Virus record (IMG/VR): IMGVR_UViG_2541047680_000004
Strand: one strand, 5' to 3'
Source: a virus
Taxonomy: Duplodnaviria > Heunggongvirae > Uroviricota > Caudoviricetes
DNA length: 64,000 nt
In this document: in pieces, positions 32,081 to 61,716 of the stretch
Layout of the letters: every line of letters begins with the position of its first letter
Position numbering within the stretch: the stretch's first letter is position 1
Notes under the pieces: model-generated
What the model was told of the DNA's origin: nothing
What the model saw: only the letters and a program-made list of their open reading frames with translations
The model's database searches: none
Made by a program: the position numbers and the translations under genes

Positions 32081-32136
32081 GCCTGCTTCCGTATATATTT
32101 AATAAGTTACTTATTATTTATATATACAGATGCAGG
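32081..32136. repeat. large AT-centred palindromic element, copy 1
   Basis: arms GCCTGCTTCCGTATAT / ATATACAGATGCAGG around a palindromic AT-rich centre; GGTCTGG 13 nt upstream; related copy at 61660-61716. Confidence 0.6.
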
Positions 32137-32160
32137 TCTTTAAATAAGCTCCCAGACCGA

Positions 32161-32427
32161 TTACATCACCAGTAACTTCGCTTTGGCTCGACCTAAAGTG
32201 GTTAACCCAAGAGTTCGGCGGTGATAGCGATTGTCACTGCGTTGGCGCGTATGCCCTTTCTCCACCAGCCCCTTTTTTATCAGAGCGCGAATTGAGAACT
32301 GGATACTTTGCTTGGTTGTCTTGTACGGCAAAACTTCAAGCAATTCGTCCAGGTCAAGTAGATGACCTCGCTCATAACCGAGATTGAGCGTTTTGATGAT
32401 GTCCTTTTGTTTATCGGTTAACGTCAT
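32161..32427 (-). CDS. small winged-helix-like DNA-binding protein (candidate)
   Basis: 88 aa; helix-turn-wing-like pattern TKQSIQFSIRALIKKGLVEK and basic C-terminus. Confidence 0.4.
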   Translation of the reverse strand: MTLTDKQKDIIKTLNLGYERGHLLDLDELLEVLPYKTTKQSIQFSIRALIKKGLVEKGHTRQRSDNRYHRRTLGLTTLGRAKAKLLVM

Positions 32428-32436
32428 GGCAAATCC

Positions 32437-33327
32437 TTATGCCGGTAAAGCAATTTCTAACGGTTTATCCAAAGGTTGTTTGTCGAATGCCAGCAGTGGC
32501 AGCGTGTCAGGCAGTCGACGGCCAAAGTCAGGGTTTCGGTACACACCATACAACGGAGACGTAAAGCTCAGGTTGTGAATGTCCTTGAGCAGCTTCACAA
32601 TGCTGGCCTCGTCCACCAGACTGTCGGCAATGTCCTGAATCGTCGTGCCACGATTCCGCCCAGCTTTTGCCAGGGAACTGTTCTTGTGGTAGTCCGCCAC
32701 CAGATCACGCAGTGCACGGCGACGACGAGACTCGCTCATTGCGAACAATTCTTTGACGATCGCCTCGTTATCACCCGGGTCGGAACGGAAATGGCGCTGG
32801 AATACACGCAGTGCACTTTCATAGCTCTTCGGTCGCTCAGGGCGGATGAACTTAAACCCTGCTTTCATGGCGAAGGGATTGTATTTGCTCATCGAGGACT
32901 GGATCTCAATGATTGGCCGGTCATGCATCCTGCTAACCAGGTTAATCATTCGATAAGAGACGCCTACGCCACGATACTGAGTATCCACAACTGAGCGACT
33001 GATCACCGCAAAGTTGTTATTCACGTACCGACCCCAGTACTGGTTAGCCACGGTGGTATTAGTGGTTGGTTTCAACTTAGGAAACATGCGGTGGCGAGGT
33101 GCCAGCAGTAGTTTCGGGTAAGCCATAACCACGACGCCCACCAGACGGTCATCAAGTTCGCAGCGATAGTAAGTTGGCGCGAAAGGTTTGCCGTCTGTTT
33201 TGTAGTGAAGCGACTTAAGAGCGTGCCAGTCCTCTACAGTTCCCTTTGTGACAGTCATTCGCTCCAGAAAGTCCAGATGACGCGGAAACTCTTCAGGGCG
33301 GTAGCGTTTAATGATGATGTCCGTCAT
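32437..33327 (-). CDS. GNAT-like acetyltransferase domain protein with C-terminal extension
   Basis: VVDTQYRGVGVSYRMI (R-x-x-G-x-G-like) and NPFAMKAGFKFI resemble GNAT motifs A and B; 296 aa. Confidence 0.45.
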   Translation of the reverse strand: MTDIIIKRYRPEEFPRHLDFLERMTVTKGTVEDWHALKSLHYKTDGKPFAPTYYRCELDDRLVGVVVMAYPKLLLAPRHRMFPKLKPTTNTTVANQYWGRYVNNNFAVISRSVVDTQYRGVGVSYRMINLVSRMHDRPIIEIQSSMSKYNPFAMKAGFKFIRPERPKSYESALRVFQRHFRSDPGDNEAIVKELFAMSESRRRRALRDLVADYHKNSSLAKAGRNRGTTIQDIADSLVDEASIVKLLKDIHNLSFTSPLYGVYRNPDFGRRLPDTLPLLAFDKQPLDKPLEIALPA

Positions 33328-33989
33328 AAATGAACCTCATCATGACTACCATTGTGATATTCCACCTTCACGCGTTCTTTGTAGTGCTTGGTGATCTGCA
33401 TATCCGGGCGCAGCGCGTTCTTCAGGTCTTCGTGAGTCGTCGCCACCATTACCGTCGCACCAACCTTTCGAGCGGCACGCTGGAGGTTAGATGCCACAAC
33501 CTGAGCGGTTACACGGTCTAGAACAGCACCGAACTCGTCAGCAGCCCACACTTTAGCGCCTGACTCAATCAGTTTGGCAATCTTGAGACGATATTTCTGA
33601 CCGTCTGACATTTCAGAAGGCTTGCGAACAAACAGATATGCATCGTTCAGACCAGCCATAGATAACAACCCAAGCGCATCGCTGGTCGTTTTGCCCAACT
33701 GATCGATGACGTTAACCTCATTATCGAAGGTAAAATCATCGATGGAGGCTACAGACAGCCCTTCATCCTTCATCTGTCGTTGCAACTCGCGCAGCACAAC
33801 GGATTTGCCGGAACCGGATTGGCCGGTGATGTACACCACATCGCCCTGCTTCACTTCCAGCTCCAGATTGTCGTAAAGCGTCCACTCTTTTTCGTCCAGG
33901 CCAAGCCCGAACGACTCAGCGATTTCCAACGTGCGCGTGGTTTTATTTACGCGTGTCTGAAACGATACGTTGATGATGTATTTGCTCAT
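33324..33989 (-). CDS. small ABC-type ATPase
   Basis: Walker A GQSGSGKS, signature-like MSDGQKYRL, Walker B VWAADEF, H-loop TTHE; 221 aa, no transmembrane partner adjacent. Confidence 0.8.
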   Translation of the reverse strand: MSKYIINVSFQTRVNKTTRTLEIAESFGLGLDEKEWTLYDNLELEVKQGDVVYITGQSGSGKSVVLRELQRQMKDEGLSVASIDDFTFDNEVNVIDQLGKTTSDALGLLSMAGLNDAYLFVRKPSEMSDGQKYRLKIAKLIESGAKVWAADEFGAVLDRVTAQVVASNLQRAARKVGATVMVATTHEDLKNALRPDMQITKHYKERVKVEYHNGSHDEVHL

Positions 33990-34654
33990 ACAGCCATCTC
34001 CCCGGAAGAGATCTTCTCCGCATATGCCACAAATGCGTCTACCCCGCTTTCTCCCGTCATTTCTTCCATGTGGGCAAGCAAATCACCAACAACAATGGCA
34101 GAGCCAGCAGGAAGCGTTTTAAAGCCCAATACGTCGACAACACGTACTTCTTCCGCTGCAACTTCACGACTGATCTCGGTGTGTTCATCCTTCTGTCGTT
34201 TAGTTTCTTCGCCAAGATCGATAACTAGCGAGTCGGTGTCCATTTCTTCTGTCATGCTGCCAACGAGAACATTCAACTCACGCTCTTCAAAGCCGAAAAC
34301 CTCGATATCGTCCAGAACAAGCGACTCAAGCTCTTTCTGTAGCTTAATTGCATCGTAATCAATGCTGGCAAGTCGGTTATCTTCAAGGCGCTTCGCACGA
34401 ACCTCGTCATCACTGAGATCATCGCGAACAATAACCGGTACGCGCTCAAGTCCAGCAAAAATTGCAGCCTCACGGCGGCCGTGGCCAGTAATAATTACGT
34501 CGTTCTTATCGACCGTAATTGGCTGGTCAAATCCGCGCTTTTTAATGGCTGCGGCTAGATCTCGGATCTGCTGTTCATCATGCTTTTTGGCATTCATCTC
34601 ATAGGGAATAAGATCTGCCGGGTCGCGATATACGATTTCAAACTTTTTGGTCAT
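33986..34654 (-). CDS. ParB/Srx-like N-terminal domain protein
   Basis: motif ITGHGRREAA (GxxRxxA-type ParB box); start set at internal Met overlapping upstream stop. Confidence 0.7.
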   Translation of the reverse strand: MTKKFEIVYRDPADLIPYEMNAKKHDEQQIRDLAAAIKKRGFDQPITVDKNDVIITGHGRREAAIFAGLERVPVIVRDDLSDDEVRAKRLEDNRLASIDYDAIKLQKELESLVLDDIEVFGFEERELNVLVGSMTEEMDTDSLVIDLGEETKRQKDEHTEISREVAAEEVRVVDVLGFKTLPAGSAIVVGDLLAHMEEMTGESGVDAFVAYAEKISSGEMAV

Positions 34655-35334
34655 TACATACGCTCCTTGTAGTAGTCGACCAGCCACACCAGAGCCTCAC
34701 CAGCGTTCTCCATTTCATTACCGGTGTTAATAGCCTGCTCTTTGATGATGTTTTTTATGGTTTCTGCAACACGATCTGACGCATCGAAAGTTACTTTGAA
34801 GCGCATGGTCTGATGTTCCGCCCCCACACGTTCGGTTTTCTCTCGTTTGTCGGTATCGACAGGCTCATCACTACCACGAGACAACGCCTCCAGTGCTTCA
34901 AGGTCGATTGCCGCCTCTTTTGCTAAAACCATCGAGATTTCGTCGTCATACGGGGCGATTTCAGACAGTTGATAGTCAAGTTCTGACTGAATTTCTTCAA
35001 TGAAGCGTTGCAATGCGATTTGGTCGTCTTCACCGTATCGCTCGTTGTCCACCAGTGACATCTGTTTAGCTACGACATCGCTAATTTTGCCCACAGAAAG
35101 CACTGGAACCGTTGAAATTCCTTGCTCAATAGCGGCACGCCAGCGATGTTCGCCGCCGAGGATTTCAAAAAATCCATCTTCAAGTTCACGAGCCAAAATT
35201 GGCTTAAAAAAGCCCAATTTTTCGATAGAACCTTTCAGTTTTTCAAAATTCTGCGCACCAACCGAATTGGTGTTCCAGGTATTCGGGCGAAGGTTGGCAA
35301 CATCAACCTGCAAAATCGTGATTTTTACATCCAT
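34654..35334 (-). CDS. ParB/Srx-like N-terminal domain protein
   Basis: motif ILGGEHRWRAA; first gene of the minus-strand operon; start codon uncertain (ATG at 35334 or GTG at 35352). Confidence 0.7.
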   Translation of the reverse strand: MDVKITILQVDVANLRPNTWNTNSVGAQNFEKLKGSIEKLGFFKPILARELEDGFFEILGGEHRWRAAIEQGISTVPVLSVGKISDVVAKQMSLVDNERYGEDDQIALQRFIEEIQSELDYQLSEIAPYDDEISMVLAKEAAIDLEALEALSRGSDEPVDTDKREKTERVGAEHQTMRFKVTFDASDRVAETIKNIIKEQAINTGNEMENAGEALVWLVDYYKERM

Positions 35335-35352
35335 TTTATTGCTACAATCCAC

Positions 35353-35370
35353 TAAGTAATCACTTACTTA
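35353..35370. promoter_or_regulatory. family-2 dyad TAAGTAA-TCAC-TTACTTA in divergent promoter region
   Basis: perfect 7-4-7 dyad between the ParB-like operon and the helicase operon. Confidence 0.35.
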
Positions 35371-35416
35371 TTATAATAGCCAAATAACATACAAAAGGCA
35401 CTAAGGAAAGAGGTTT

Positions 35417-36976
35417 ATGACTGTTCGGATTGTATCTAACGCAGTTAATGCGCTTATTTCTGGCGCAGATGACAAGGTAAAGCAACTGGTGCAACAGATG
35501 TTGAGCTACGAAGTCGAGACTGGCGACTGGAAGGGCACAAGCACAATGTTCAACTGGAGTAAAAACTCGTTCCCTGCAGGCTTTGCCAAGCCTGTAGCGG
35601 CGAACTTGAACAAGGCGGGCATCAAATGTGTTCATATCCGCAAAGACAAAGCCCCGGCGCTTGGAAAACCAAATCCGGCGGTTAACCCATTCCCATACAA
35701 TCCTGATTATGCGTATCAGGATCAGACTGTGGAAACACTGGTTCGAGAGGGAATGATGATTGCGCAGATCGCTACTGGTGGCGGGAAATCTAACGTTGCC
35801 TGCAAAGCAGCTGCACGTATCGGTCGAATGACATTATTTTTAACAACCCGCTCTGTTCTGATGTTTCAAATGGCCGAAAACTTCCAGAGATCCATCGACT
35901 ACCGCGCCGAAAATGGCGAACCGTGGTTAAAAGACCAAAAGGTTGGAGTCATTGGCTCGGGTGAGTTCCAGGTATCACGACATATCAACGTCGCTACAGT
36001 TCAAACTCTTGCAAGTTTCCTCGAAGAACCACCACGCGATGCAACACCAGATAAGAAAAGCTACCACCTCAAACGTCGGGAGTTGGTGAAACGCTTCCTT
36101 TCAAGTGTCTCTCTTCTTATTCTGGAAGAGGCGCATGAGTCTTCAGGCTCAAATTTCTATGACATCGCCAGATTATGTGTGAACGCAGACTATCGTCTGG
36201 CGCTTACAGCCACGCCGTTCATGAAGGATTCGACGGAAGCCAACATGCGCCTGATGGCGGTGGCCGGGCGAATTGAAATTAAAGTCACAGAAAAGTACCT
36301 GATTGATCGAGGCATTCTGGCAAAGCCGTACTTCCTTTATCATAAAGTTGCCTACAAGCCAGACGAGGCCAGAATCAAGGCCGAACTTGCCAACAAACAC
36401 CTCAATTTTAGAGTTGGTATGAGCACCGCCTACCAAAAGGCTTATCAGTTGGGGATCGTGTATAATTTGGGACGTAACGAGGCCATTGTTCGCGAAGCAT
36501 TGCTCTATAAGCAACATTCTCTCAATTGTATGACTCTGGTTCGTCTTAAACGCCACGGGCAAATCCTGATGGAAATGATGAAAGAGTCCGGCCTTAGAGT
36601 TGACTTCATCTATGGGGAATCTAACCAGGCGACAAGGCAAGCAAAGCTGAACAGTTTAGCGTCTGGAGAAATAGATGTTTTAATAGGCTCGACTATTCTG
36701 GATGTCGGTGTTGATGTGCCAAGCGTTGGTGCGGTCATTCTTGCTGGTGGTGGGAAAGCAGAAGTTGAAATGAGGCAGCGTGTCGGTCGTGGCTTACGAG
36801 CAAAAAAAAATCAGGCAAACGTGTGTTTTATCACTGATTTCATTGACATTAGCAACAAATACCTGTTGTCTCACTCTTATGAGCGAAAACACATCATCGA
36901 CACCACACCTGGCTTTGCAGAAGGTGTATTGCCTATTGATGGAGCATTCGATTTTGGAGTTCTGAAACGAGATTAG
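35417..36976 (+). CDS. superfamily-2 DEAD/DEAH-type helicase
   Basis: motif I ATGGGKS, motif II ILEEAHE, motif III TATP, motif VI QRVGRGLR; about 100-aa N-terminal extension. Confidence 0.85.
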   Translation: MTVRIVSNAVNALISGADDKVKQLVQQMLSYEVETGDWKGTSTMFNWSKNSFPAGFAKPVAANLNKAGIKCVHIRKDKAPALGKPNPAVNPFPYNPDYAYQDQTVETLVREGMMIAQIATGGGKSNVACKAAARIGRMTLFLTTRSVLMFQMAENFQRSIDYRAENGEPWLKDQKVGVIGSGEFQVSRHINVATVQTLASFLEEPPRDATPDKKSYHLKRRELVKRFLSSVSLLILEEAHESSGSNFYDIARLCVNADYRLALTATPFMKDSTEANMRLMAVAGRIEIKVTEKYLIDRGILAKPYFLYHKVAYKPDEARIKAELANKHLNFRVGMSTAYQKAYQLGIVYNLGRNEAIVREALLYKQHSLNCMTLVRLKRHGQILMEMMKESGLRVDFIYGESNQATRQAKLNSLASGEIDVLIGSTILDVGVDVPSVGAVILAGGGKAEVEMRQRVGRGLRAKKNQANVCFITDFIDISNKYLLSHSYERKHIIDTTPGFAEGVLPIDGAFDFGVLKRD

Positions 36977-36978
36977 TT

Positions 36979-37257
36979 ATGAGTGAAAAGAAAACAACTT
37001 ACTGTCAGGTAGCATTGTCTGATAAGGCCAATGACAAACTTGGAAAGTTTCAAGTGAAACTAAAAGAAAAAAATATCAAAATGTCTAAGGCTGAAGTCAT
37101 AAATACCATTCTGGAACAATTGACAATGGCCGACTTTGACAAGGTTATATCTTCTGTCGGGGCTTCCGCTAAGACTCGTGAGAAAATCATGCGTATCTAT
37201 GAGAACTCTAATATGACAAAGGAAGATCTCGAAACGCTATTAAGCAGATTAAAATAA
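36979..37257 (+). CDS. hypothetical small protein
   Basis: 92-aa ORF tightly following the helicase gene. Confidence 0.35.
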   Translation: MSEKKTTYCQVALSDKANDKLGKFQVKLKEKNIKMSKAEVINTILEQLTMADFDKVISSVGASAKTREKIMRIYENSNMTKEDLETLLSRLK

Positions 37258-37325
37258 TCACGCTATCAATTAGGGAGACAAAGATGAAGTCTCCCATACT
37301 GTTCACTTTCTGTTCTAAAACTATC

Positions 37326-37748
37326 ATGAAATACTCGCTTCTCCCTCTACTAACGTTACCAGTGTTGATGCTTACCGCGTGCCAATCACGCCCAATATCA
37401 ATCCATGACGCCAAACCAGCACCGCAGGCCAAAGTGTTCAAGTATCAAAGCGCAGCGCCAGCTACGTTGGTGGTAATGAGAGACACAGGTTTTGTAGGAG
37501 CTGGATGTGATGCTTCCATTTTCATCAACGGCGAAACTGTCGCAAAACTGGCTACAGGCGAAAAAGCGACTTTCCATTTAAATGCCGGAGAATTAATTGT
37601 GGGTGCATCTCTTGAAGGTGCAGGTTTATGTGCTCTAAACCCCGCTCGTCAAGAGCGAGAAACGACTCTGAAGAATGGAGACACAAAAGCGTTCAGGGTG
37701 TTCACCAGCAATTCTGGTGACATCGACATTCTGCCAACAACTCTGTGA
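37326..37748 (+). CDS. lipoprotein
   Basis: signal peptide MKYSLLPLLTLPVLMLTAC with lipobox LTAC; start set at MKYSL. Confidence 0.5.
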   Translation: MKYSLLPLLTLPVLMLTACQSRPISIHDAKPAPQAKVFKYQSAAPATLVVMRDTGFVGAGCDASIFINGETVAKLATGEKATFHLNAGELIVGASLEGAGLCALNPARQERETTLKNGDTKAFRVFTSNSGDIDILPTTL

Positions 37749-37752
37749 TGAC

Positions 37753-38277
37753 ATGACAACCAAAGATATTACCTACGGTATCCAAGCTGAACTCTGGCCG
37801 CGAGATTACACTAACGTTGAAAAACTACTGATGTTCTGGCGCAGAGAACAAATTCCTGTAAGGGTCACTCTCGAAGATGGCCAGGCGTTTTGCATGTACG
37901 TTTATGGCCTCATGCCATCTCGTAACAAAGTTGACCTTTGCCCAGCCCCTTTTGACAAAGAAAATCGTATAAGGCTCCCACTTGAACGCATTAGTACAAT
38001 TGAATCAGGTGTGGTTGACAGTATCGCTCACGATTTCAAAGGTCGACTAACAGTTCACCCTGATTATGTCGATAATCGGCCATCACGCCGCGATTTTTTT
38101 GCAATTTGCAACCAAGCCTACAAAGCAAACAAATCTATAAGGGTGTACATGGCGGATGGCCGTGAAATTGAGGGGGTGTCAGCAGGCGCAGATGCTTGTC
38201 AGGTTACACTACGTGTCGAGAACGGTAGAAAAATAGTTGTTTTGTTCGATTGGGTTGAACGAATTTTGCCTTTTTGA
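37753..38277 (+). CDS. hypothetical protein
   Basis: 174 aa from MTTKDITYG; no motif recognised. Confidence 0.45.
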   Translation: MTTKDITYGIQAELWPRDYTNVEKLLMFWRREQIPVRVTLEDGQAFCMYVYGLMPSRNKVDLCPAPFDKENRIRLPLERISTIESGVVDSIAHDFKGRLTVHPDYVDNRPSRRDFFAICNQAYKANKSIRVYMADGREIEGVSAGADACQVTLRVENGRKIVVLFDWVERILPF

Positions 38278-38280
38278 GTT

Positions 38281-38589
38281 ATGAAATCGATATTGTTACC
38301 ACCATTATTTTTACTTTGCTCAGTTGCGGCAAATGCAATGGACTATAAGCCTGTCATTCAGTCGCTGATGAATGACGTGTGCTCAACGTCTCAGAATGTA
38401 TCAGTTTGCATGTATCAATTTTCGGCAGCCGTAAAAGCAGGAAAAGCGATAGGTGAGAATGTGGAACTGTGTAAGAAAGTGGCAAATGAAGAACGGGCAA
38501 TGTTGGATTGCGAATCTAGCGAGTCATCGGCACAGTTCGTTGATGCGCTATTTGACACCAATCGTAAGGCTGTAGAGTCTGTTCAATAA
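38281..38589 (+). CDS. small secreted protein
   Basis: signal peptide MKSILLPPLFLLCSVAANA; several Cys in mature part. Confidence 0.45.
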   Translation: MKSILLPPLFLLCSVAANAMDYKPVIQSLMNDVCSTSQNVSVCMYQFSAAVKAGKAIGENVELCKKVANEERAMLDCESSESSAQFVDALFDTNRKAVESVQ

Positions 38590-38604
38590 ATCTATAAGGT
38601 TAAT

Positions 38605-38631
38605 AACCGGCTAAGTCCGGTTATTATTTTT
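38605..38631 (+). terminator. rho-independent terminator
   Basis: stem AACCGG/CCGGTT with loop CTAAGT followed by TTATTATTTTT. Confidence 0.6.
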
Positions 38632-38778
38632 CACATCACTTCTTTATATCTATAAATCAAATAATCTAAATATATAAGGTCGAAAGCCGGAATCGATTAT
38701 TTATTTAGGGAACACCTTCGACGATCTCGCTTTTATTTCTAGGACTTTCATCCCTGCAAAAAAAACTTAAAAAAACAC

Positions 38779-38806
38779 TTGCAATCTTTTTTCGCGTATC
38801 GATAAT
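38779..38806 (+). promoter_or_regulatory. sigma70-like promoter of low-GC moron
   Basis: TTGCAA, 16-nt spacer, GATAAT; about 65 nt upstream of the 38872 start. Confidence 0.45.
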
Positions 38807-38871
38807 TGAACTCGTCGAAAGCGAAGACGCTAACGACAATAAATTTTAAATTTACATAAGGAAAAATTATC

Positions 38872-39522
38872 ATGGCTAACATTATCATTTCTAAAAAGTC
38901 CATCATTGAAGCTGCATCTATTGTATCCGACGAGCTGCGCGAAAAAGCAGATCTGGCAACTCAAACATATAACGAACATTATAAAAATGGTACGCACACT
39001 AAAGCAGACAAAGCAAATATGCAAGCTGCGACCACTAAACTTGCTTACTTCATCAACAACGTCGTAAACGCAGTAGAAGACGAAAAATTATGCTCTGTTT
39101 TCTACTATGCGATTAAAGCAAGCAAACAAGCGCCAGAAGTATTTTTCCGTGATGCAATGACTAATAGTTATTCTCTGGAAAAACTGGTTTATCTGGTTAA
39201 ATCAATTAAATCTGGTAAATGCGTTTATTCCGTCGCTGATATGTCTGGATCTCGTGTATTCGCTTTAATCGATATGATTAACGACGAGATCGACACGTTC
39301 ACTAATGGCGCTGTTTTCGATTTAATGAATGAAGCTAAAAAAGCGTGTGAAATTAAATTGGACGCTGGCTATACTCAAGCCAACCAGTTGATCAATCTTT
39401 GCGAACGTCTTGGACTTGTTGAAAAAGTCAAAGGAGCTGGGAGTGCGAAAGCTGGTACTCAGCAATATCGCTTTATTAAAAATGATTTCTACAATTATTT
39501 AGCTGATGCTTTCAAAGCGTAA
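38872..39522 (+). CDS. hypothetical protein (low-GC moron gene 1)
   Basis: 216-aa ORF in AT-rich segment with own promoter and terminators. Confidence 0.5.
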   Translation: MANIIISKKSIIEAASIVSDELREKADLATQTYNEHYKNGTHTKADKANMQAATTKLAYFINNVVNAVEDEKLCSVFYYAIKASKQAPEVFFRDAMTNSYSLEKLVYLVKSIKSGKCVYSVADMSGSRVFALIDMINDEIDTFTNGAVFDLMNEAKKACEIKLDAGYTQANQLINLCERLGLVEKVKGAGSAKAGTQQYRFIKNDFYNYLADAFKA

Positions 39523-39533
39523 TTAATGGAATC

Positions 39534-39554
39534 AAGCGCCCACTATGGGCGCTT
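39534..39554 (+). other. hairpin (copy 1 of GCGCCC-ACTAT-GGGCGC) between moron genes
   Basis: identical stem-loop recurs at 40030-40054 where it carries a T-run; here only TTT follows. Confidence 0.45.
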
Positions 39555-39570
39555 TAAAGGAGCTTTAAAG

Positions 39571-39774: not shown

Positions 39775-39793
39775 TTTTTTAAGGAGCTTAATC

Positions 39794-40024
39794 ATGTTTG
39801 TTCTTATCGCTGGCGTTAACGTCCATAATGAATATTATGTTAATCGCATCGCTGGGATCGCTGGTTACGCTGGGCGCGCAGTCGAGCTTATAGATGAAAC
39901 GACGCGCAAAATTGACTTATTGAGCGACCAGGAGCGAAAAAAAGCAGACGTGAACGACGCTGATATATTTTTAATGTTAAAAGCGTTTGTAGAAATGGGA
40001 TTTGAAATCAGTCTACATAAATAA
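39794..40024 (+). CDS. hypothetical small protein (moron gene 3)
   Basis: 76-aa ORF with RBS-like AAGGAG upstream. Confidence 0.4.
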   Translation: MFVLIAGVNVHNEYYVNRIAGIAGYAGRAVELIDETTRKIDLLSDQERKKADVNDADIFLMLKAFVEMGFEISLHK

Positions 40025-40029
40025 AATCG

Positions 40030-40054
40030 AGCGCCCACTATGGGCGCTTTTTTC
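40030..40054 (+). terminator. rho-independent terminator
   Basis: stem GCGCCC/GGGCGC, loop ACTAT, then TTTTTT. Confidence 0.65.
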
Positions 40055-40594: not shown

Positions 40595-40596
40595 CA

Positions 40597-41207: not shown

Positions 41208-41280
41208 TGCGGTAGCCGGACGGGAACAGGTGGGTTTGTCGGTTGCCTGGAGGTAAGAGGTTGGTGTTTTTAGCCTGCGG
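41208..41280. repeat. about 70-bp G/T-rich repeat, copy A
   Basis: roughly 75 percent identical to 44385-44455 (shared GGTAGCC..AGGTGGGT..TCGGT.GCCTG..AAGAGGTTGGT). Confidence 0.5.
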
Positions 41281-41473
41281 GAAACAGGATGGTCATTTAA
41301 GGCCACCAATGCTGATGGCCTTAATAATTATCGACCGATTACGCTAAGGATCTTTTCCTCAACTGATTTGTTGTTGCGACTAAACTGCCTTGCGTATCTG
41401 ATGACAGAAGAGGCGTTTTGCTTTCTGACCATCTCGGCTCTTTCCTTCAGGCGTTTCTTGAAATCGCCCATAT

Positions 41474-44100: not shown

Positions 44101-44460
44101 CGTGTATGGAGTAATGGCAGGTGGGCGATTCCTTTCGTTATTGTGTTTGAGTTGTTTGTCTGGAGTGTGTGAAAGGCTTTTGTAGTTATTCGTGTATTGG
44201 GTAATGGCGTTTCCCGTGATTGTTATGTTTCGTGTCTTTTGGGATTGAGAGAAACCTTGCGGTTACAGGCTTCGTTGGGGTTTCAGTGATTCTGGTGTTT
44301 CTTCGCTGTTTGGGTAATGGCGTGTCGTGGGTATCGCGCGTATGAATGTTTTCGGATTGCCTGTGAAAGTTAGGTTGGTTGTCCGGTAGCCTGGGGAGAA
44401 GAGGTGGGTCTTTTCGGTAGCCTGCCATAAAGAGGTTGGTTGTTTTGGGTAATGGTATAT
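44101..44460. repeat. direct repeats in GT-rich ORF-free region
   Basis: CGTGTAT(T)GG(A/G)GTAATGGC at 44101, 44191, 44304 and degenerate copy at 44437; strong G+T excess on plus strand across 43960-44700. Confidence 0.55.
44385..44455. repeat. about 70-bp G/T-rich repeat, copy B
   Basis: pairs with 41208-41280. Confidence 0.5.
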
Positions 44461-54833: not shown

Positions 54834-54842
54834 TCTTAACTC

Positions 54843-54905: not shown

Positions 54906-54952
54906 CCATAAGTTATGGCCTTTATTTATTCATGCAGAAGGATTTGTAGCGC

Positions 54953-55333
54953 CTAATTGCCGGATAAAATGGGTTGAGGTGCTTGCCAGTAAGCTCCACC
55001 GTCCCATGTGAACCCCATGCGAATAAGAGTGTTTATTGCGGCTTTGGTAGACTCCGATTCGACACTGGCTTTTCGAAACTCTTGAACCTCTTTCGCCAAC
55101 TTGTATGTAATTGTGCAGGGGACGATTGCAGCCCAGCCTTTCTCATGACTGTTAATGACCATCTGGATGTGACCATCCAGAATAGGTTGATCAGGCATGT
55201 TATTGAAAACGTCTGCCTGTTTTTGAATATGAAGAAAAAGCCTTGCCAGCTCCATTTGCTCACTACGAGACAAGGGATTATCAAGAGGGTTTTTTGCAAA
55301 AGCGGCTATACGCTGTGCGTCAATGCCAAACAT
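54953..55333 (-). CDS. hypothetical protein
   Basis: 126-aa ORF. Confidence 0.35.
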   Translation of the reverse strand: MFGIDAQRIAAFAKNPLDNPLSRSEQMELARLFLHIQKQADVFNNMPDQPILDGHIQMVINSHEKGWAAIVPCTITYKLAKEVQEFRKASVESESTKAAINTLIRMGFTWDGGAYWQAPQPILSGN

Positions 55334-56037
55334 CAGCGCACCTCACCATCTTTATGGCTGGAGTTAACTTCCGCCATTAAATGTCTGACGTAATCGACAA
55401 GAGAGCCACCTGGTGGAATCTGGCATTCCTCAACTAACTGGAAGTAGATATCCGCAGCATTACGTGTATTGCTACCCGCGCATATTCTTTCTTCCCGAAG
55501 TGCATGAAGCTCGTTGATCAAACGGTCACACTCTCCGTTACGCTGATCCACAACAGCCTCAAGCTCTGCGACGCGTTCACCTGGCGTCTTACCTTCTTTG
55601 CGTTGGATGGTAACGACGAAATCGCCAATTGCAGGGACGTTGTAATCCAGCTCAAGGTAGTTTTTGGCACCGCTGCGGACGAACTCACCCGCGAACATGG
55701 TGGCGAACATCGCAGAGGCCACTTCGCCGTTGAAAAGTGACTCCAGATCTAACGGAGTCCCGGCAGCAAGAGCCTCTTTTGCTGTATCCATTGCATCCAT
55801 GAACCGATCAAACTCATTAGCGCGCTTTTCCAGGTCTTTCCATTGCTCGCTCCAACGTTTGGCAACGAAGTCTATGAATGTTTTCGCGGATTCATCAAAA
55901 TCCCCCTCAAACTTAACGATGCCTTTATCAATAATGATCTGGCCTACCGCATCCTCTGCATAACCTTTCAATGTAAACTTGAAAGAAAAATCAGAACGGC
56001 CTGTGACGTTAAAATGCTCTAACTGGAGGTTGCTCAT
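55333..56037 (-). CDS. hypothetical protein
   Basis: 234-aa ORF. Confidence 0.4.
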   Translation of the reverse strand: MSNLQLEHFNVTGRSDFSFKFTLKGYAEDAVGQIIIDKGIVKFEGDFDESAKTFIDFVAKRWSEQWKDLEKRANEFDRFMDAMDTAKEALAAGTPLDLESLFNGEVASAMFATMFAGEFVRSGAKNYLELDYNVPAIGDFVVTIQRKEGKTPGERVAELEAVVDQRNGECDRLINELHALREERICAGSNTRNAADIYFQLVEECQIPPGGSLVDYVRHLMAEVNSSHKDGEVR

Positions 56038-56082
56038 GTGTTTTTCTCTTCTCGTTTAGTTACTACATTCTTACACAAATTA

Positions 56083-56100
56083 AGTAAGTATTTACCTATC
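56083..56100. promoter_or_regulatory. family-2 dyad-like motif
   Basis: AGTAAGTATTTACCTATC. Confidence 0.3.
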
Positions 56101-57784
56101 ATTTAACGCGTTTGAAAACGTATACGCTGACTGTGATCCCGGTATCTTCAAACTCGTTGGTAAACGACTTCCCTCTGGCATAAACGTAATTATCCATCGT
56201 CATCCAGTCCAGTATTGGCGCAGTGCCCGGCAATACTGCTACAAGACGCCCGCCGACTTTCAGATGCCCCAGCGCAGCCATCGTGTGCTCTCTATGACGA
56301 CCAAGCGAGTACGGCGGGTTCATAACGATTTTGTCGAACTGATAACCTGCGTTGTTCTCAGACCACTTTATGAAGTCGCAGCAAATCGTGTTCGTATACC
56401 CTTTTCCACGCAGGATATCAGCGAAGAGAGGTGCGATTTCTATGCAGGTAACATCTTCCAGATCGGCGTTAATATAGGCCAGAAGATCCCCACGTCCGGC
56501 TTGAGGCTCCAGCAGCTTCTCACCAGGCTTCAATTCAGTGGCTCTGGCAACGTACTCAGCAATCAAGCGTGGGGTAGGGTAGAACTGGTGTGATTTTGTA
56601 TCCGGTATTAATCCGGTAGCCACAATCGTATTTAGCGTATGGCCGATCTCATACGGGAACTGCCAGTGCTTTTTCTCCTGCACGCCGCCAATGAAGCTCA
56701 GTGTGCGCTCAAGCTCTTCCACCTGCGACTTCTGGAGAGCTGAATCAGAGAAGTACCATACGCCTTTGTCTTTGCTCAATCGCCCGTCACGAAGCGCAGT
56801 GCGAACCGGCACGGAGATCGTCTTCTGGATTAAACCGAACTGCTTTGGTGCCCGTGTTTTTGGCGCAGTTCGGCATGGCGCGGGGATTGCAGCAGGCATA
56901 CTGTAAGCCAGCACCTCATTCAACTTCCAGGCCACGTCAGGATGTATTTCAAAGTGAACGTTGCCGTTCTTGAACATCTTCACGCGCATCAGATTTCCAT
57001 CGACGTTCATCCAGTCACCGGTCTGGCAGTCGTTTGCCCTATACGCAGCTGATAGCACCTCAGCAGTGCGGTTGATGGTAATAAATTCTTTGTGCGCGAA
57101 GAAATGAAGCAAGACACGCAGATCGTCGATGTAGTCCTCTTTGCGATAGTTCACGCTAACGCTGTCCCGCCAGAAATCAGAAATGCAGTCAGCGATTATC
57201 AGACGCTCGCTGAAACCGTTTGTCTTATTTGTCTTGTGCGCAGGACTCAGCGCCTTAAACAAGCCATACACGCGCTCAGAGAGATATTTGTGCCTGTCAT
57301 TCAGCAAATTAAGCATCGTGGGTATGACCGTTTCTGCTTTGAACTCCGGTACACCAACGAACTCTTTAACCTTCATCTGGTAGCCTGTTCTGTCAGTTTT
57401 GATGACTTCCTGTTTGCCCTCTATAAACTGCTCGCGCCACTCATCTCGACGGGAAGCTGGCATGATCAGCAAAACGTTAGTCATGTCCGTGACCTTCCTC
57501 CAGTACTCGGCCCAAATATTCTGTTTCACCCATTCCAGATCGACTTTATCCAACCAACCTCGATTTAAACGCGAGCGATCTTCATCTGGTCGATGGTTTA
57601 GTCTCAGCAGGCGATTAATCATGTTGTGGCGTTCGTCGCCATAAACGAAGTCGTGTACCTGATACATGAAGGCGATCTCTTTCTCGCACTCGGCCACGAT
57701 TTCGTGGATGACATTCATTTCCTGACGATAGTCGATAGCCGTGTTTGAGCTGGCATCGTCGATGATAGAAAGGGCTGTATTCAT
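56099..57784 (-). CDS. N6-adenine DNA methyltransferase with large N-terminal domain of unknown function
   Basis: C-terminal motifs FYPTP, LEPQAGRGDLL (SAM-binding-like) and NPPY; about 370-aa N-terminal region without recognised motif. Confidence 0.75.
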   Translation of the reverse strand: MNTALSIIDDASSNTAIDYRQEMNVIHEIVAECEKEIAFMYQVHDFVYGDERHNMINRLLRLNHRPDEDRSRLNRGWLDKVDLEWVKQNIWAEYWRKVTDMTNVLLIMPASRRDEWREQFIEGKQEVIKTDRTGYQMKVKEFVGVPEFKAETVIPTMLNLLNDRHKYLSERVYGLFKALSPAHKTNKTNGFSERLIIADCISDFWRDSVSVNYRKEDYIDDLRVLLHFFAHKEFITINRTAEVLSAAYRANDCQTGDWMNVDGNLMRVKMFKNGNVHFEIHPDVAWKLNEVLAYSMPAAIPAPCRTAPKTRAPKQFGLIQKTISVPVRTALRDGRLSKDKGVWYFSDSALQKSQVEELERTLSFIGGVQEKKHWQFPYEIGHTLNTIVATGLIPDTKSHQFYPTPRLIAEYVARATELKPGEKLLEPQAGRGDLLAYINADLEDVTCIEIAPLFADILRGKGYTNTICCDFIKWSENNAGYQFDKIVMNPPYSLGRHREHTMAALGHLKVGGRLVAVLPGTAPILDWMTMDNYVYARGKSFTNEFEDTGITVSVYVFKRVK

Positions 57785-57796
57785 AATTACACCATT

Positions 57797-57830
57797 AAAT
57801 AATTTGTTTTCTGATTGGTGTAATTATCGC
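57797..57830. promoter_or_regulatory. family-1 operator/promoter element
   Basis: AAATAATTTGTTTTCTGATTGGTGTAATTATCGC. Confidence 0.5.
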
Positions 57831-57925
57831 AAACTTGAAAAGGCATAAAAGCTGCATTCATAGGCGTTACAGCAGATTTAAGGCGTAAAAATGGGGGCTT
57901 TCGCCCCCTGTCGACTGGTGCAGTA

Positions 57926-58492
57926 TTAGAGTGCGTATTGCGTTTTGTGCGGCTGCTTATTCAAGTCATGGCGATGCGTGAGCTCCCGCATCATGTCTTC
58001 AAGGCGACTCTTTGTGTCGTCGAGCTGGTCGGCCATTGCACCTAAAAGCTGGCGAACGGCCATCGGATCGTCGCTGTTTAGTGATGGCATTTTATAACCT
58101 GCTTTAGAAGATATAAGGTTAATTGCAGACATCAACATCGTTAGAGAGGATTTAAGCCCGGCAATTTCACGATCTTTGCTGGCAATAATCGTCTCACTTT
58201 TATTACCGTCATGAGATCCTTGAGTCTCGCTCACCATATCCAAAGTCGCTTGCAACTTATCAGCTCTCTCTTTTTCAGCAAGATAATGAACACCGAAATG
58301 ATGTGCTAAAGCTACAATCTGAGTTGGCTCTTCAAAGGTGGACTCAAAATTAAGTGCTGTAACCACTCTCTCAAATATGGAAACGTCTTCTATTCCTCGA
58401 AGAATGGCTAACATTTTGACCAGTTCATTAGCATCCATTTCTTCGAATAAGGCGTTTTGTTCATCAGCTATCGCTTTGCATTTCTTGCACAT
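57926..58492 (-). CDS. hypothetical protein
   Basis: 188-aa ORF. Confidence 0.4.
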   Translation of the reverse strand: MCKKCKAIADEQNALFEEMDANELVKMLAILRGIEDVSIFERVVTALNFESTFEEPTQIVALAHHFGVHYLAEKERADKLQATLDMVSETQGSHDGNKSETIIASKDREIAGLKSSLTMLMSAINLISSKAGYKMPSLNSDDPMAVRQLLGAMADQLDDTKSRLEDMMRELTHRHDLNKQPHKTQYAL

Positions 58493-58510
58493 GTGTTTTT
58501 CCTAATGCTT

Positions 58511-58549
58511 AAACAAGTTGTTTTCTTATTGGCTTTATTGTGATGTGGC
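58511..58549. promoter_or_regulatory. family-1 operator/promoter element
   Basis: AAACAAGTTGTTTTCTTATTGGCTTTATTGTGATGTGGC. Confidence 0.5.
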
Positions 58550-58789
58550 ATAAAAGGGGAGCAAGCTAAACGTAAAGGTGCAAACTCTCTATTTCGGTCA
58601 ACGAAACACAAGGGCCATTTGGCCCTTGTCATTAGCACTTTGCTTTACGAACTAACGGATAAGCGAAGTAGATCGCCAAACCAATGAGGACGCCATCAGA
58701 AATGACAGACATCATCTTTCCCGTAAAATCCACCAACACCGCCATCACCAGAAGAGCAATGACGATCACAAGCCGGAATCTCTCAAGCA

Positions 58790-59215
58790 TTAGAGATAAG
58801 CATCCAGTGACAACTGAAGCGCCTGGGCGATCTTTTTCAGTGCCTGCTCTTCTTGTTCACCAATGCCGTCCTGATCGGCAATATCAAGGCACAGACACAG
58901 AACATCGACCGCCTCTGGAGTACCCGCAATATCAGACAGCTCACGAATAGCCTGTGCATTAGCAGAACGAGGGGACGCTTCGTAACGAGCACGGATATTG
59001 GCGCTCATTTGGGCAATTTCACCAGCAAACGGAGAAAACGCAGGCAGAGCTGCAATTGTCTTCTCAAGAATGGCAATTTCTTTTGCGTCACATGTGCCGT
59101 CGGCATAGGAGATCATGTACGCGCCCCACACGGTGGCCTCAACCGCATCACGGTTCTCCATTTTTTTGACTTCGATAACAGCTTTACGAGTTTTCTTTTT
59201 GAAGAAACCTAACAT
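58790..59215 (-). CDS. hypothetical protein (possible TerB-like fold)
   Basis: 141 aa; loose resemblance to TerB-type pattern (YADG..E..L); weak. Confidence 0.35.
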   Translation of the reverse strand: MLGFFKKKTRKAVIEVKKMENRDAVEATVWGAYMISYADGTCDAKEIAILEKTIAALPAFSPFAGEIAQMSANIRARYEASPRSANAQAIRELSDIAGTPEAVDVLCLCLDIADQDGIGEQEEQALKKIAQALQLSLDAYL

Positions 59216-59238
59216 GTGTTTTCCTTTTATTATTTGTC

Positions 59239-59270
59239 AAAACAAGTTGTTTTCTAATTACATAAATTGC
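59239..59270. promoter_or_regulatory. family-1 operator/promoter element
   Basis: AAAACAAGTTGTTTTCTAATTACATAAATTGC. Confidence 0.5.
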
Positions 59271-59308
59271 TTACGCAGAGATGGTCAATGCATATGCACT
59301 AACAGCCG

Positions 59309-59497
59309 TCAGAAATAACCAAGTACCGAACCAACTGGAAAAACAAAAATCCCAACTACACGAGCCAAGGTCATGCCAGCCTGAAACTGGAGATCGCCAG
59401 AGCAAACAAGTTTTATAATGTTCGATACCCAACCGGCGGCCATGAGGGCAAGAATTGCCAGCCAAATTTTTCCAAAGTGATTTGAAAACCAGTTCAT
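59309..59497 (-). CDS. small membrane protein
   Basis: 62 aa with two hydrophobic helices. Confidence 0.35.
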   Translation of the reverse strand: MNWFSNHFGKIWLAILALMAAGWVSNIIKLVCSGDLQFQAGMTLARVVGIFVFPVGSVLGYF

Positions 59498-59506
59498 ACA
59501 ACCGCC

Positions 59507-60001
59507 TTAGTCACAGCATGATCCTGAGTAACTGGATGAACTTGAGGTATCGCATCCACCGCCATCCCATCCAGAGTGACAGGACGCTCCACTGGAGTGG
59601 TGGTAATTGTCGTCGACGAAGGTGTGGTGATGGATGAATCCGGCATCAAAAGGCTCTGACCGGCTGGAACGGCTACCGTCGCCAGTGAAACTATAATGAG
59701 AACGTAGGCCATTGGTTTCAGCCTCTTTCTTTGAAAATTTTCCATTCGAACTGTCCTTGTTGTTTTTCTCCTTCACTAAAGGCCGTGCATTTTTCGCTTC
59801 GCGTGAAGAACCAGAGGCAACAATCGCCCCCACGTTCGCAACAACTGACGCTTGATTATCTAAACGTTCATTCAGCAACCGAACGGTAGTCTCTAGTTCA
59901 TCAAGACGTGACATAACACGACCGCTAAATAATTCGGCCAAAATTTGACGTAAAGAACGAGGACGTTTAGTTACAGAAGTGAAATAGGTTTGACGTGCCA
60001 T
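59507..60001 (-). CDS. hypothetical protein (N-terminal coiled coil, low-complexity C-terminus)
   Basis: first about 75 aa protein-like; remainder Ser/Gly/His-rich and overlapped by another ORF with a signal-peptide-like start (59494..59745). Confidence 0.3.
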   Translation of the reverse strand: MARQTYFTSVTKRPRSLRQILAELFSGRVMSRLDELETTVRLLNERLDNQASVVANVGAIVASGSSREAKNARPLVKEKNNKDSSNGKFSKKEAETNGLRSHYSFTGDGSRSSRSEPFDAGFIHHHTFVDDNYHHSSGASCHSGWDGGGCDTSSSSSYSGSCCD

Positions 60002-60130
60002 GTGGACTCCATCCAGTGTCAGAAAGAGTTGCGGCTGGCGATTGCCAGCCGCCTTTCTCGTTCCATCCTGGAACTGTGTCTTACCGACACATTGTCATCC
60101 TGACGCCGATAAGATACATGATTTAAAATG

Positions 60131-60153
60131 ATAGGTAAACACTTACTTACTAT
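60131..60153. promoter_or_regulatory. family-2 dyad-like motif
   Basis: ATAGGTAAACACTTACTTACTAT. Confidence 0.3.
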
Positions 60154-60740
60154 TTGTTATAAACAAAACCAATATCTTTCTTGTGAGGCATATCTGCTGC
60201 TGAAAAAGCTGCGATCTTCGCGAGTCGATCACATATTTCATTTTCACGATGCCCGGCGTGACCTTTAACCCACTTCCAGCGAACATTATGTCGACTTGCG
60301 GCCTCATCCAGACGCTTCCACAGATCAACATTCTTTACCGGTTTTTTGTCAGAAGTCATCCATCCATTGCGTTTCCACCATTTCATCCACTGTGTCATGC
60401 CGTTTTTCAGATACTGGCTATCAGAGTGCAAAATAACGTTGCATGGATATTTCAAACGCTCCAGCCCGATAAGTGCCCCCATCATCTCCATGCGGTTATT
60501 GGTGGTGCTATGAAAACCATCTGAGAACTCGCGTTCCTCACCACGATACTGGAGAACGATACCGTAACCGCCCGGGCCACCCGGATTTTTAAGGCAAGAG
60601 CCATCACTAAAGATTTTCACGGTTTTAAGCTGGGGATTGAACTCTACGACAGGCGTTGTGGGATTGGTGCGGGGAGAATTTTTGTTTTTGTCTTTTTTGC
60701 GAGTTTTTGCTTGCGATCGGGCTGGTGTCTTCGTCGTCAT
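60150..60740 (-). CDS. ribonuclease H (RNase HI family) with basic N-terminal extension
   Basis: SDGSC, NNRME, HSDSQY, VKGHAGH, NE..D motifs; start set at MTTKT with RBS AGGAG. Confidence 0.8.
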
Positions 60741-60839
60741 ATAAACTCCTGAATCAAGCGCCGCGCCGATTTTTCCTCGCGCGTGCGCACACGCGTGCGT
60801 GTTAATAATTATTAAAATAAACAAATTACTTCCCAGAAC

Positions 60840-61205
60840 AGGTTTTTATAAACCTGAACTGAACGAACGAAGTGAGTGACGTTCACCTCGAACGAAGTGA
60901 GAGGTTGTCTTTTCAGGTAATACTCTCCCAGGGAGGTGAGTATAAAATTCCTCACCAACCTGGTCGTTTCATAACCTGAAAAGCTATGGTCTAAGTCTAC
61001 TGCCAGCTTAGACTTGGGAAGTTATGGATGACAGCACCCCAGAACCGAGATCTTCCCACACTTTATGAAGGGGAGTACTGGATTCAACCTCTCGAAACAC
61101 CCCAGACTCGACAATCATAAAGTGACCCTTGTCTCTGCTCACTTTGGTTCCCCCTTCCCCGACACCTATACGGCACCGGTTCTACGCTGGTAGTGAGCTT
61201 TTTTA
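60840..61205 (+). ncRNA. candidate structured noncoding RNA (antisense to flanking genes)
   Basis: ORF-free 480-bp gap; nested inverted repeats CTTTTCAGGT/ACCTGAAAAG and GGTGAG/CTCACC; duplicated GAACGAAGTGAG; plus-strand hairpin GCTCACT..AGTGAGC followed by TTTTTT at 61137-61205. Confidence 0.3.
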
Positions 61206-61321
61206 AACCTGACGCCAGTGACGCTTACCCCCACCCATCAGGTCGAGCCTCCAGTCTACGACTGGAAACTATCAGATCTTAGCACTTACAATTCACTTTA
61301 TGAATAGTTTGTACTTATCTA

Positions 61322-61576
61322 TCATTGTGATTGATTATTTTCTCGACCATGTAGTTGAACATTCAAGGCAAACACCTCATTGATCAACTCACCTAAAAGC
61401 TGTTCAACAAGTTCGCGATGCTCGCCAAGATGCAAGCACTTAATTGCCCACTCGTACAAGTTGAAAGCCTGCTCACGATCTTTCATCATTTCACGAGCCT
61501 GGGCCAGAAAATCGCTCTCTACGAGCGCAACGACATTAGTCGGGTATGACATGTTGGTTTCCTTAAAGTGGTTCAT
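61322..61576 (-). CDS. hypothetical protein
   Basis: 84-aa ORF. Confidence 0.35.
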   Translation of the reverse strand: MNHFKETNMSYPTNVVALVESDFLAQAREMMKDREQAFNLYEWAIKCLHLGEHRELVEQLLGELINEVFALNVQLHGRENNQSQ

Positions 61577-61659
61577 AAAATCGATTTTAAAGCGTCTGGG
61601 AAGGGGGTCTAGTGGATTCTGTAGTGATGTTCAGGTCTGGGAGTCTCTGATACAAAACA

Positions 61660-61716
61660 GCCTGCTTCCGTATATTAATAATTAATATGTAGTTATTTAT
61701 ATATACAGAAGCAGGC
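61660..61716. repeat. large AT-centred palindromic element, copy 2
   Basis: arms GCCTGCTTCCGTATAT / ATATACAGAAGCAGGC; GGTCTGG 19 nt upstream. Confidence 0.6.

Follow-up and report, generated by a model that had tools for sequence, protein, structure and literature searches.

A three-copy palindromic cassette at operon junctions of SSU5-type phage-plasmids

Introduction

Several described systems place palindromic DNA or hairpin-forming RNA between genes. Intrinsic terminators combine a GC-rich stem base with a run of T residues shortly behind it, whereas T7 R-sites and lambda sib are RNase III processing hairpins of phage polycistronic mRNAs. The PeSLs of T4-type phages and the REP/BIME and ERIC elements of enterobacteria are repeated intergenic stem-loop cassettes, herpes simplex oriS and oriL are palindromic origins with an AT-rich centre, and phage N15 has dispersed centromeres. 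The packaging sites of lambda (cosN), P2 (cos) and P1 (pac) form a further point of comparison. Here we analyze an imperfect palindrome that resembles each of these systems in some respects and differs from each in others. It lies in a 64,000-nucleotide stretch of DNA from a tailed phage (Caudoviricetes; IMG/VR record IMGVR_UViG_2541047680_000004), hereafter called the window, in which an earlier note, made from the sequence alone, had recorded two copies of roughly 57 bp about 29.6 kb apart.

Megablast of window positions 31000–34000 identified an E. coli SSU5-type phage-plasmid as the source. The closest record, CP054387 ('Escherichia phage CMS-2020a'), was 99.5% identical to the window over this part, PhiR41_1 and Cyrano/pLF82 98.7–99.6%, Salmonella phage SSU5 ~88% and Klebsiella phage-plasmids ~80%. 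In Klebsiella, E. coli, Enterobacter and Salmonella, phage-plasmids of the SSU5 type rank among the most frequent large plasmids; their clinically important supergroup includes pMT1 of Y. pestis and pHCM2 of S. Typhi, and members carry resistance genes. The cis-acting sites of these elements (packaging site, lytic origin, operon insulators) are essentially unmapped, and an element present in three copies that head the replication, packaging and post-dam operons offers a concrete handle on them.

Results and Discussion

Copy 1 (32081–32138, minus strand) is an imperfect palindrome of 55–58 bp, and copy 2 (61660–61716, minus strand) is the same palindrome with a diverged AT-rich centre. A repeat search of the window returned both as one direct-repeat family (D13; 32080–32136 and 61659–61715) of 57 nt, 81% identical at a spacing of 29,579, which bears out the pair as first recorded. 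The 16-nt left arm described as identical, GCCTGCTTCCGTATAT, indeed occurs exactly twice in the window, and each copy has a right-arm match on the opposite strand, with three mismatches in copy 1 and one in copy 2. Matches to this 16-mer at up to three mismatches numbered six against 0.36 expected, a count that none of 100 shuffles reached. Folded as 121-nt RNAs, copies 1 and 2 gave −44.9 and −39.7 kcal/mol (z = −7.7 and −5.6 versus shuffled sequences), the corresponding DNA folds gave z = −5.4 and −4.6, and both copies form long hairpins on either strand. Folds of the sense strand show stems of 18–25 bp plus an outer stem; in copy 2 the transcribed strand forms an uninterrupted 18-bp stem. 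The arms of copy 1 (CCTGC.TC.GTATA / TATAC.GA.GCAGG) are GC-rich and enclose an AT-only centre with the dyad AATAAGT-N-ACTTATT, centred at 32108. The 35-bp centre consists almost purely of A and T in a genome of 47% GC.

The palindrome is the inner part of a larger unit of ~100 bp, in which outer inverted boxes of 8–10 bp (GGTCTGGGAG / CTCCCAGACC) are followed by variable spacers of 12–20 nt, the invariant GC-rich arms and the AT-only centre. The GGTCTGG box that the earlier note had described beside both copies was found at 32061–32067 and at 61634–61640; its inverted partner had been missed. At copy 1 the box, which reads CCAGACC on the transcribed strand and forms the 3' box there, pairs in the RNAalifold consensus with 32151–32158 (CCCAGACC), part of a partner box CCCAGACCGA (32151–32160) whose transcribed strand TCGGTCTGGG is the start of GGTCTGGGAG. 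At copy 2 the right outer box is a degenerate CCAGAGC (61729–61735), where SSU5 and Klebsiella have CTCCCAGAC. Between copy 2 and the downstream gene an array of GTCTGG-like boxes (61592–61643) comprises GCGTCTGGG at 61592, GGGTCTAG at 61606, GATTCTGT at 61616 and GGTCTGGGAG at 61634. The array overlaps a weak sigma-70-like site on the minus strand, TAGACC-N16-TAAAAT, and Klebsiella has more such boxes beside copy 2 than the window. The boxes are conserved in related genomes; copies that behave only as ordinary terminators and lack a conserved flanking box, the outcome that would have spoken against the earlier note, were therefore not what we found.

The search for further copies that the earlier note had proposed yielded a third one. 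Copies 1 and 2 are the only ones within the window. In the flanking parts of CP054387 one further copy was found, copy 3 (CP054387.1, ~30711–30765), which lies ~1.7 kb to the left of where the window begins. Many SSU5-like contigs came out of a degenerate pattern scan of IMG/VR, and sorting of the matches by their flanks gave contexts of the copy 1 type, of the copy 2 type and a third one, that of copy 3. The complete SSU5 genome holds exactly three copies, copy 1 across the record ends, copy 2 at 78304–78360 after dam and copy 3 at 33458–33513 upstream of SSU5_038, the helicase and the primase; in Klebsiella pJN2-26 copy 3 lies at 34845–34899 of the stretch read. CP054387 also has three copies, each between co-directional genes and each heading the replication, the packaging/structural or the post-dam operon. 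In total, 800 PLSDB plasmids carry the element in 2–6 BLAST places each; they come from at least ten genera, including Klebsiella, Escherichia, Enterobacter, Yersinia pestis (pMT1-type), Salmonella, Citrobacter and Cronobacter, among others. Plasmids with a single copy proved to be deletion or cointegrate derivatives that keep copy 3, with a breakpoint away from the palindrome. The element appears to be undescribed, and it is larger than first noted, with three copies of ~100 bp each. A literature search found no paper containing its sequence, and in Rfam 15 no covariance model matched copy 1 or copy 2 at gathering score; around the copies only sub-threshold matches to microRNA precursors were obtained, which reflect generic hairpins.

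The placement of the copies is intergenic and co-directional. The minus strand carries nearly every gene around copies 1 and 2, including all immediate neighbors, and nearly the entire SSU5 genome is transcribed in one direction. With its outer box included, copy 1 starts 2 nt past the stop of an 88-aa gene of unknown function (phrog_900; 32161–32427, minus) and lies 116 nt upstream of terS (31333–31965, minus; phrog_867, annotated as 'DNA binding domain' or small terminase), with which the packaging/structural operon opens and which is followed by terL (Terminase_6N; 30077–31333). Copy 2 begins 22 nt past the stop of a Dam-type N6-adenine methyltransferase gene (61739–62332, minus), and the first gene behind it is the small gene phrog_5343 (61322–61576, minus), whose true start is probably the second ATG (76 aa). 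The positions upstream of terS and between the Dam gene and the next gene string hence agree with the earlier description. Copy 3 stands directly upstream of the operon phrog_2500 – DnaB-like helicase – primase and delimits the 3' end of a variable cargo island with genes oriented toward this replication operon. The adjoining cargo slot holds a KAP-type NTPase in CP054387, a GIY-YIG-like protein in a 97%-identical genome and SSU5_037 in SSU5; after it comes the parA operon that opens the window, and the distance from this operon to copy 3, which lies downstream of it, is ~2 kb.

The copies agree in polarity. Read on the transcribed strand, each follows the pattern CCTGC.TC(T/C)GTATATATAAATAA...AAATATATACGGAAGCAGG, and the direct identity between copies (0.82–0.98) is higher than the inverted identity in 33 of 36 pairs; of the remaining pairs two tie and one is reversed, and each of them involves copy 2 of SSU5. 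Because direct identity prevails in this way, the element is directional, and it is always oriented with the genes. This polarity, the third copy and the terminator-like make-up of copy 2, with a T-run in four lineages, had not been foreseen.

The sequence behind the stems separates copies 2 and 3 from copy 1. Copy 2 has the anatomy of an intrinsic terminator on the minus strand, GAAGCAGGC followed by TGTTTTGT, and the T-run CTGTTTTGTAT (61650–61659, on the transcribed minus strand) comes directly after the stem. A run of four or more T residues within 10 nt after the stem on the transcribed strand was found in four lineage variants of copy 2 (CTGTTTTGTA, CTTTTTAAGA, CTTTTCCTTG and CTTTTTAGTA) and in three of five variants of copy 3 (TCTTTTAAAA, TCTTTTTCTA and TTTTTTTATA). 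Thus 7/10 lineage-distinct tails of copies 2 and 3 carry such a run, compared with 3.1% of positions in the genome background; the nominal binomial probability of ~3e-9 overstates the independence of these tails since the lineages are related, though the spacer sequences differ between lineages. The antisense sides are without four-T runs. Behind the stem of copy 1 no T-run was present on either strand in any of eight lineage variants, in keeping with the earlier view that copy 1 is not a plain terminator. In copy 3 of Klebsiella pJN2-26 the conserved AT-rich core GTATATAT has decayed, the stem base has been kept by a compensatory change of CCTGC/GCAGG to CCTGT/ACAGG, and TTTTTTT follows; judged by its anatomy, this copy is a textbook intrinsic terminator. 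Together with the T-run pattern it constitutes the strongest evidence that copies 2 and 3 may be terminators that end the upstream units.

Copies 2 and 3 thus have the sequence features that define intrinsic terminators, and copy 1 lacks the U-tract. Like known intrinsic terminators, copies 2 and 3 show a GC-rich stem base, a T-run 1–2 nt further on and a position after a stop codon between co-directional genes; copies 1 and 2 both come behind a stop codon and point the same way as the gene before them. Unlike them, the cassette has a stem of at least 25 bp with an AT-only upper half, an outer stem and a sequence conserved over three loci and several genera, and copy 1 is without a T-run. The comparison with T7 R-sites and lambda sib is similarly divided. 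The cassette shares with them a long intergenic double-stranded RNA stem under near-unidirectional transcription, the tail-less form (copy 1) and the succession of lower stem, internal loop and upper stem, but it matches neither the T7 site architecture nor an Rfam model and shows no strand bias in stability. In the sense-strand folds the transcribed intergenic region would form double-stranded RNA of the length that RNase III requires (~20 bp or more), and from stem length alone processing by RNase III is plausible.

We tentatively favor a boundary hairpin at the transcript level, with copies 2 and 3 as terminators and copy 1 as a tail-less variant, and put its probability at somewhat below even. 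Termination, insulation and RNA processing are what we infer from the anatomy, copy number, polarity, conservation and T-runs of the cassette and from a small number of compensatory changes. According to this proposal the cassette, standing at junctions of long co-directional operons, would act by forming a hairpin in the transcript. As Rho-independent terminators or insulators, copies 2 and 3 would stop upstream transcription (of Dam and nucleotide-metabolism genes at copy 2, of partition and cargo genes at copy 3) from entering the next lytic operon. Copy 1 would not terminate; it would form a double-stranded stem of 25 bp or more at the 3' end of the message of the upstream operon, which could shield this end or be a substrate of RNase III, and readthrough past it would be stopped ~90 nt further on by a small terminator before terS. 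If copies 2 and 3 are insulators, this would help explain how maintenance and cargo genes are expressed without leakage into lytic operons. If the three copies are only terminators, the finding is an ordinary one, and the cassette would still be a useful marker for typing and for module boundaries.

The small terminator in question is a terminator-like hairpin, GAGCGCATGGACGCGCTC followed by the T-run TGTGTGTTTTAG (31984–32005, minus), directly before the terS ribosome-binding site. Together with a pair of AAACAAGTTGTTT dyads ahead of it (32005–32044) it fills the interval 31984–32044 (minus) between copy 1 and terS. SSU5 and Pseudomonas phage nickie show the same layout before terS, the nickie hairpin being GGTGAGAGGACCGCCTCTCACC followed by TATTTTT. 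This hairpin suggests that the late operon may be under antitermination or readthrough control.

Some of the variation among lineages preserves base pairing. Compensatory changes were found in copy 2 of Klebsiella (CTTTCG/CGAAAG) and in copy 1 of PhiR41_1 (TCTG/CAGA), and in the copy 1 of one lineage two outer-stem pairs are doubly changed, from G-C to A-U and from U-A to A-U. Since copy 2 of the same contig keeps the canonical boxes, the outer-stem change is copy-specific, which speaks for boxes that pair with each other rather than for a single protein that recognizes them all. One pair of the RNAalifold consensus alternates, being U-G in 13 sequences, C-G in nine, C-A in three and U-A in one.

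A number of observations weigh against a hairpin acting on the transcript. The covariation term of RNAalifold over 26 distinct copies is ~0 because the arms hardly vary, and covariation thus does not prove the structure. At arm position 6, mismatches remain uncompensated throughout. A constraint on RNA only should give the sense strand an advantage, and no consistent folding advantage of the transcribed strand was observed; in copy 2 of Klebsiella and SSU5 the antisense fold reaches −29.3 kcal/mol versus −20.4 kcal/mol for the sense fold. One outer box is often retained while its partner decays, and extra GTCTGG-like boxes are phased downstream of copy 2; both look like protein binding. The ordinary terminators of this genome are short, GC-rich and mutually unrelated, and a sharing of 55 conserved nt by three terminators across genera is puzzling. 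Finally, copy 1 is the one that E. coli, Klebsiella and Salmonella lineages conserve best; its dyad AATAAGT-N-ACTTATT is exact in every lineage with only the central base varying, and it lacks a terminator tail altogether.

Several of these points would be expected if the palindromes are protein-binding sites at the DNA level, namely lytic replication origins or sites of a phage-plasmid-specific regulator of the three downstream operons. The invariant arms with their uncompensated mismatches, the missing strand bias in folding, the one-sided retention of outer boxes and the spacing of about one helical turn between the boxes beside copy 2 all fit such sites, as do the AT-pure centre clamped by GC arms and the position of copy 3 directly upstream of the phrog_2500–DnaB–primase operon, which is typical of origins. 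Lineage variants common to all three copies (L036, L108, L046) would fit co-evolution with a trans factor or gene conversion. Like herpes oriS/oriL and the N15 centromeres, the cassette presents several AT-centred palindromes with inverted flanking boxes, one of them beside replication genes. It differs from them in its uniform polarity, in the T-runs on the sense strand, neither of which is expected of origins, and in the Klebsiella copy 3 degenerated into a plain terminator, which lost the conserved core yet keeps hairpin and T-run. The outer boxes of one copy 1 changed in a compensatory manner with copy 2 of the same genome unchanged, the GC skew tracks gene direction without a switch at the sites, and no initiator or regulator is tied to them; the small proteins encoded beside the copies gave no Pfam or PDB sequence match. 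On balance, DNA-level binding sites appear improbable.

The copies also evolve in concert. One lineage has the derived GTATATTAAATAATAAAT in copies 1, 2 and 3, and copies 1 and 2 of SSU5 share box and spacer; such sharing could stem from gene conversion or from a trans factor common to the copies. Concerted change is also what a functionless, recombination-prone dispersed repeat would show if it were homogenized by gene conversion and marked module boundaries, and dispersed centromeres like the four sites of N15 were considered along with it. In two 97%-identical genomes the homology stops exactly at the edge of copy 3, beside different cargo genes, and the proximity of copy 3 to the parA operon is suggestive of a centromere. 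In likeness to PeSLs, REP/BIME and ERIC, the cassettes are imperfect palindromes in transcribed intergenic DNA, lie at module boundaries where homology breaks and are homogenized; in contrast to them, there are only three copies at fixed syntenic positions in one phage-plasmid supergroup, with no attached promoter. Position, polarity and sequence are conserved across ~800 plasmids of at least ten genera, which argues for selection, and freely recombining direct repeats would delete 25–45 kb of essential genes. pMT1 and pHCM2 presumably carry P1-type parAB. Within the supergroup, conserved phage genes are reported to go together with differing partition modules (PMC7969092); this counts against a centromere, the palindrome itself being constant across lineages. 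A mere repeat or a centromere seems slightly less probable to us than DNA-level binding sites.

Three further identities were rejected. A site for site-specific recombination, one of the candidates of the earlier note, found no support: direct repeats 30 kb apart would delete essential DNA from the genome. A protelomerase target of the N15 type (telRL) would be a single palindrome rather than three copies; no protelomerase is annotated in SSU5 or in the 50-kb stretch of pJN2-26 that was read, and the plasmid and circular phage records CP054387, pJN2-26, CP057422 and NZ_CP040928 are circular. The GTTRRRY core of integron attC sites is absent from the element.

Packaging is the alternative that concerns copy 1 in particular. 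Here copy 1 would be the cos or pac site at which the terminase of SSU5-type phages recognizes and cleaves the DNA, cutting in the AT-rich centre upstream of terS. The other two copies would then serve as secondary sites, without harm under headful packaging, or be derivatives co-opted for termination; this is compatible with the terminator reading of copy 2. The earlier note had listed a packaging site among its candidates, and one suggestive fact was found in its favor. The linear GenBank record of SSU5, which is derived from virions, starts and ends inside copy 1, at a point that corresponds to window 32099|32100 and is 9 nt away from the centre of the dyad. A random break in any of the three 55-bp elements has a probability of ~0.002; given this low chance, the break should be due either to genuine ends of the virion DNA or to an assembly that failed at the hairpin. 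The latter is a live alternative, since copy 1 is the most perfect hairpin in SSU5 and 454 assemblies may break at such a palindrome. The Cyrano record ends 1 nt away, but it was built from plasmid pLF82, was probably rotated to match SSU5 and is not independent.

As in lambda, P2 and P1, copy 1 combines dyad symmetry with a place directly upstream of terS, the classic one for cos, and the SSU5 record ends inside it. It is also the most conserved copy, with an exact central dyad in all lineages, and alone lacks a terminator tail. What sets it apart from these sites is the presence of three near-identical copies per genome in SSU5 and CP054387: a cos site, unlike a headful pac site, has to be unique, and the core of copy 3 in E. 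coli is identical to that of copy 1, so that the core alone cannot specify a unique cos. Under headful packaging several start sites would be harmless. TerL is of the T4/T5 type (Terminase_6N), ~25% identical to T5, to Jersey-type phages and to other distant terminases, and is not diagnostic. Long direct terminal repeats (DTRs) are the packaging type of the nearest typed relatives: for the related Nickievirus Nican01, PhageTerm returned 'DTR (long)' and not cos (PMC11256456), which counts against a cos site here. The Nican01 record appears to start at terL, with the terS match ending ~158 nt before the record end, and the authors used the terminase as conventional record origin (PMC11256456). 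PQ492289 starts at the ATG of the gene after copy 2 and so holds no information on packaging ends. A literature search found no paper on SSU5 termini, and none are given in the mBio 2022 induction study or in the LF82 study. In the virome reads of LF82 (ERR8973296; PMC9928086), Cyrano was covered at background level.

Taken as a whole, copy 1 would be an RNA hairpin devoid of a U-tract, a site for packaging (cos/pac) or the two combined. We regard a packaging function of copy 1 as doubtful, yet as the chief rival of the boundary hairpin; if it is real, the site would define what the phage-plasmids are able to transduce and the amount of cargo they can take along. The bolder proposal, that copy 1 is the terminase cleavage site of the whole SSU5/pHCM2/pMT1 supergroup, placed on an AT-centred palindrome also carried at two other operon heads, we think rather unlikely. 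If true, packaging initiation, transcription insulation and perhaps lytic replication would share one hairpin/cruciform module, and the phage would either tolerate several packaging starts (headful) or tell the copies apart by their flanks.

For comparison, the lytic Pseudomonas phage nickie, a relative that is not a plasmid, is syntenic with the window, with helicase, ParB-like genes, ABC ATPases, a small gene, terS and terL in succession and the DnaB operon further on. Its genome yielded no member of this palindrome family. It carries a two-copy palindrome of its own upstream of terS and of the DnaB operon, with arms CTTTCCCT/AGGGAAG around a AACTACTTGTT...ACAAGTTGTT dyad (AACTTGTT), and this dyad corresponds to the AAACAAGTTGTTT motif, which is repeated eight times in the window. 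Since nickie has cassettes of its own at operon heads, such palindromes are long-standing in this phage lineage, and the 55-bp element is specific to enterobacterial plasmid-prophages. The presence of the element in plasmid-prophages and its absence from lytic nickie would fit an insulation of lytic operons from upstream maintenance and cargo genes.

Further repeats and hairpins were noted in the window. A hairpin at 63448–63486, which the earlier note had described as a terminator formed by a related stem, has no more than the 9-nt stem base GCCTGCTTC in common with the family; CP054387 contains it, SSU5 has no counterpart, and it is a plain bidirectional terminator, probably an ordinary one and not a family member. 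Two GC-rich hairpins with a T-run (GAGCGCCCACTATGGGCGCTTT; family D20) at 39522–39555 and 40017–40050, 88% identical and 495 bp apart, are duplicated ordinary terminators.

The 13-bp dyad AAACAAGTTGTTT (AGAAAACAAcTTGTTT on the transcribed strand; family D3) occurs at least eight times just upstream of minus-strand genes, at window positions 1138, 32031, 41144, 43296, 46063, 57797, 58511 and 59240, in addition to the pair before terS. It often lies a few nt before the ribosome-binding site and probably serves this lineage as promoter, operator or translational operator. A second family of short palindromes, of the type GATAGGTAAGTnnTTACCTATC, stands usually 10–30 nt upstream of start codons, including those of dam, portal and the phrog_2500 gene beside copy 3 (4140–4163, 16571–16595, 23057–23084, 28554–28578, 30062–30084, 56068–56104, 60126–60162 and 62340–62362). 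These palindromes may bind the prophage repressor as operators or, as hairpins, mask the ribosome-binding site.

Two pairs of ~30-nt direct repeats, TTCGGTAGCCTGG..AAGAGGTTGGT (family D9; 41236–41299 and 44380–44446), 3.1 kb apart, flank a region of reversed GC skew and look like iterons on either side of a plasmid repA. Diverged tandem repeats of 99–400 nt (D1, D2 and D4; 5894–7534 and 10724–11119) lie inside large minus-strand structural genes of the tail-fibre and tape-measure region and represent repeated protein domains, not regulatory DNA. The only Rfam match in the window is RNA-OUT at 63830–63899 (minus; 98.8 bits). Near this position an IS10/Tn10 end is inserted in the element from which the window derives and not in its closest relative, and the homology to CP054387 ends at ~63785.

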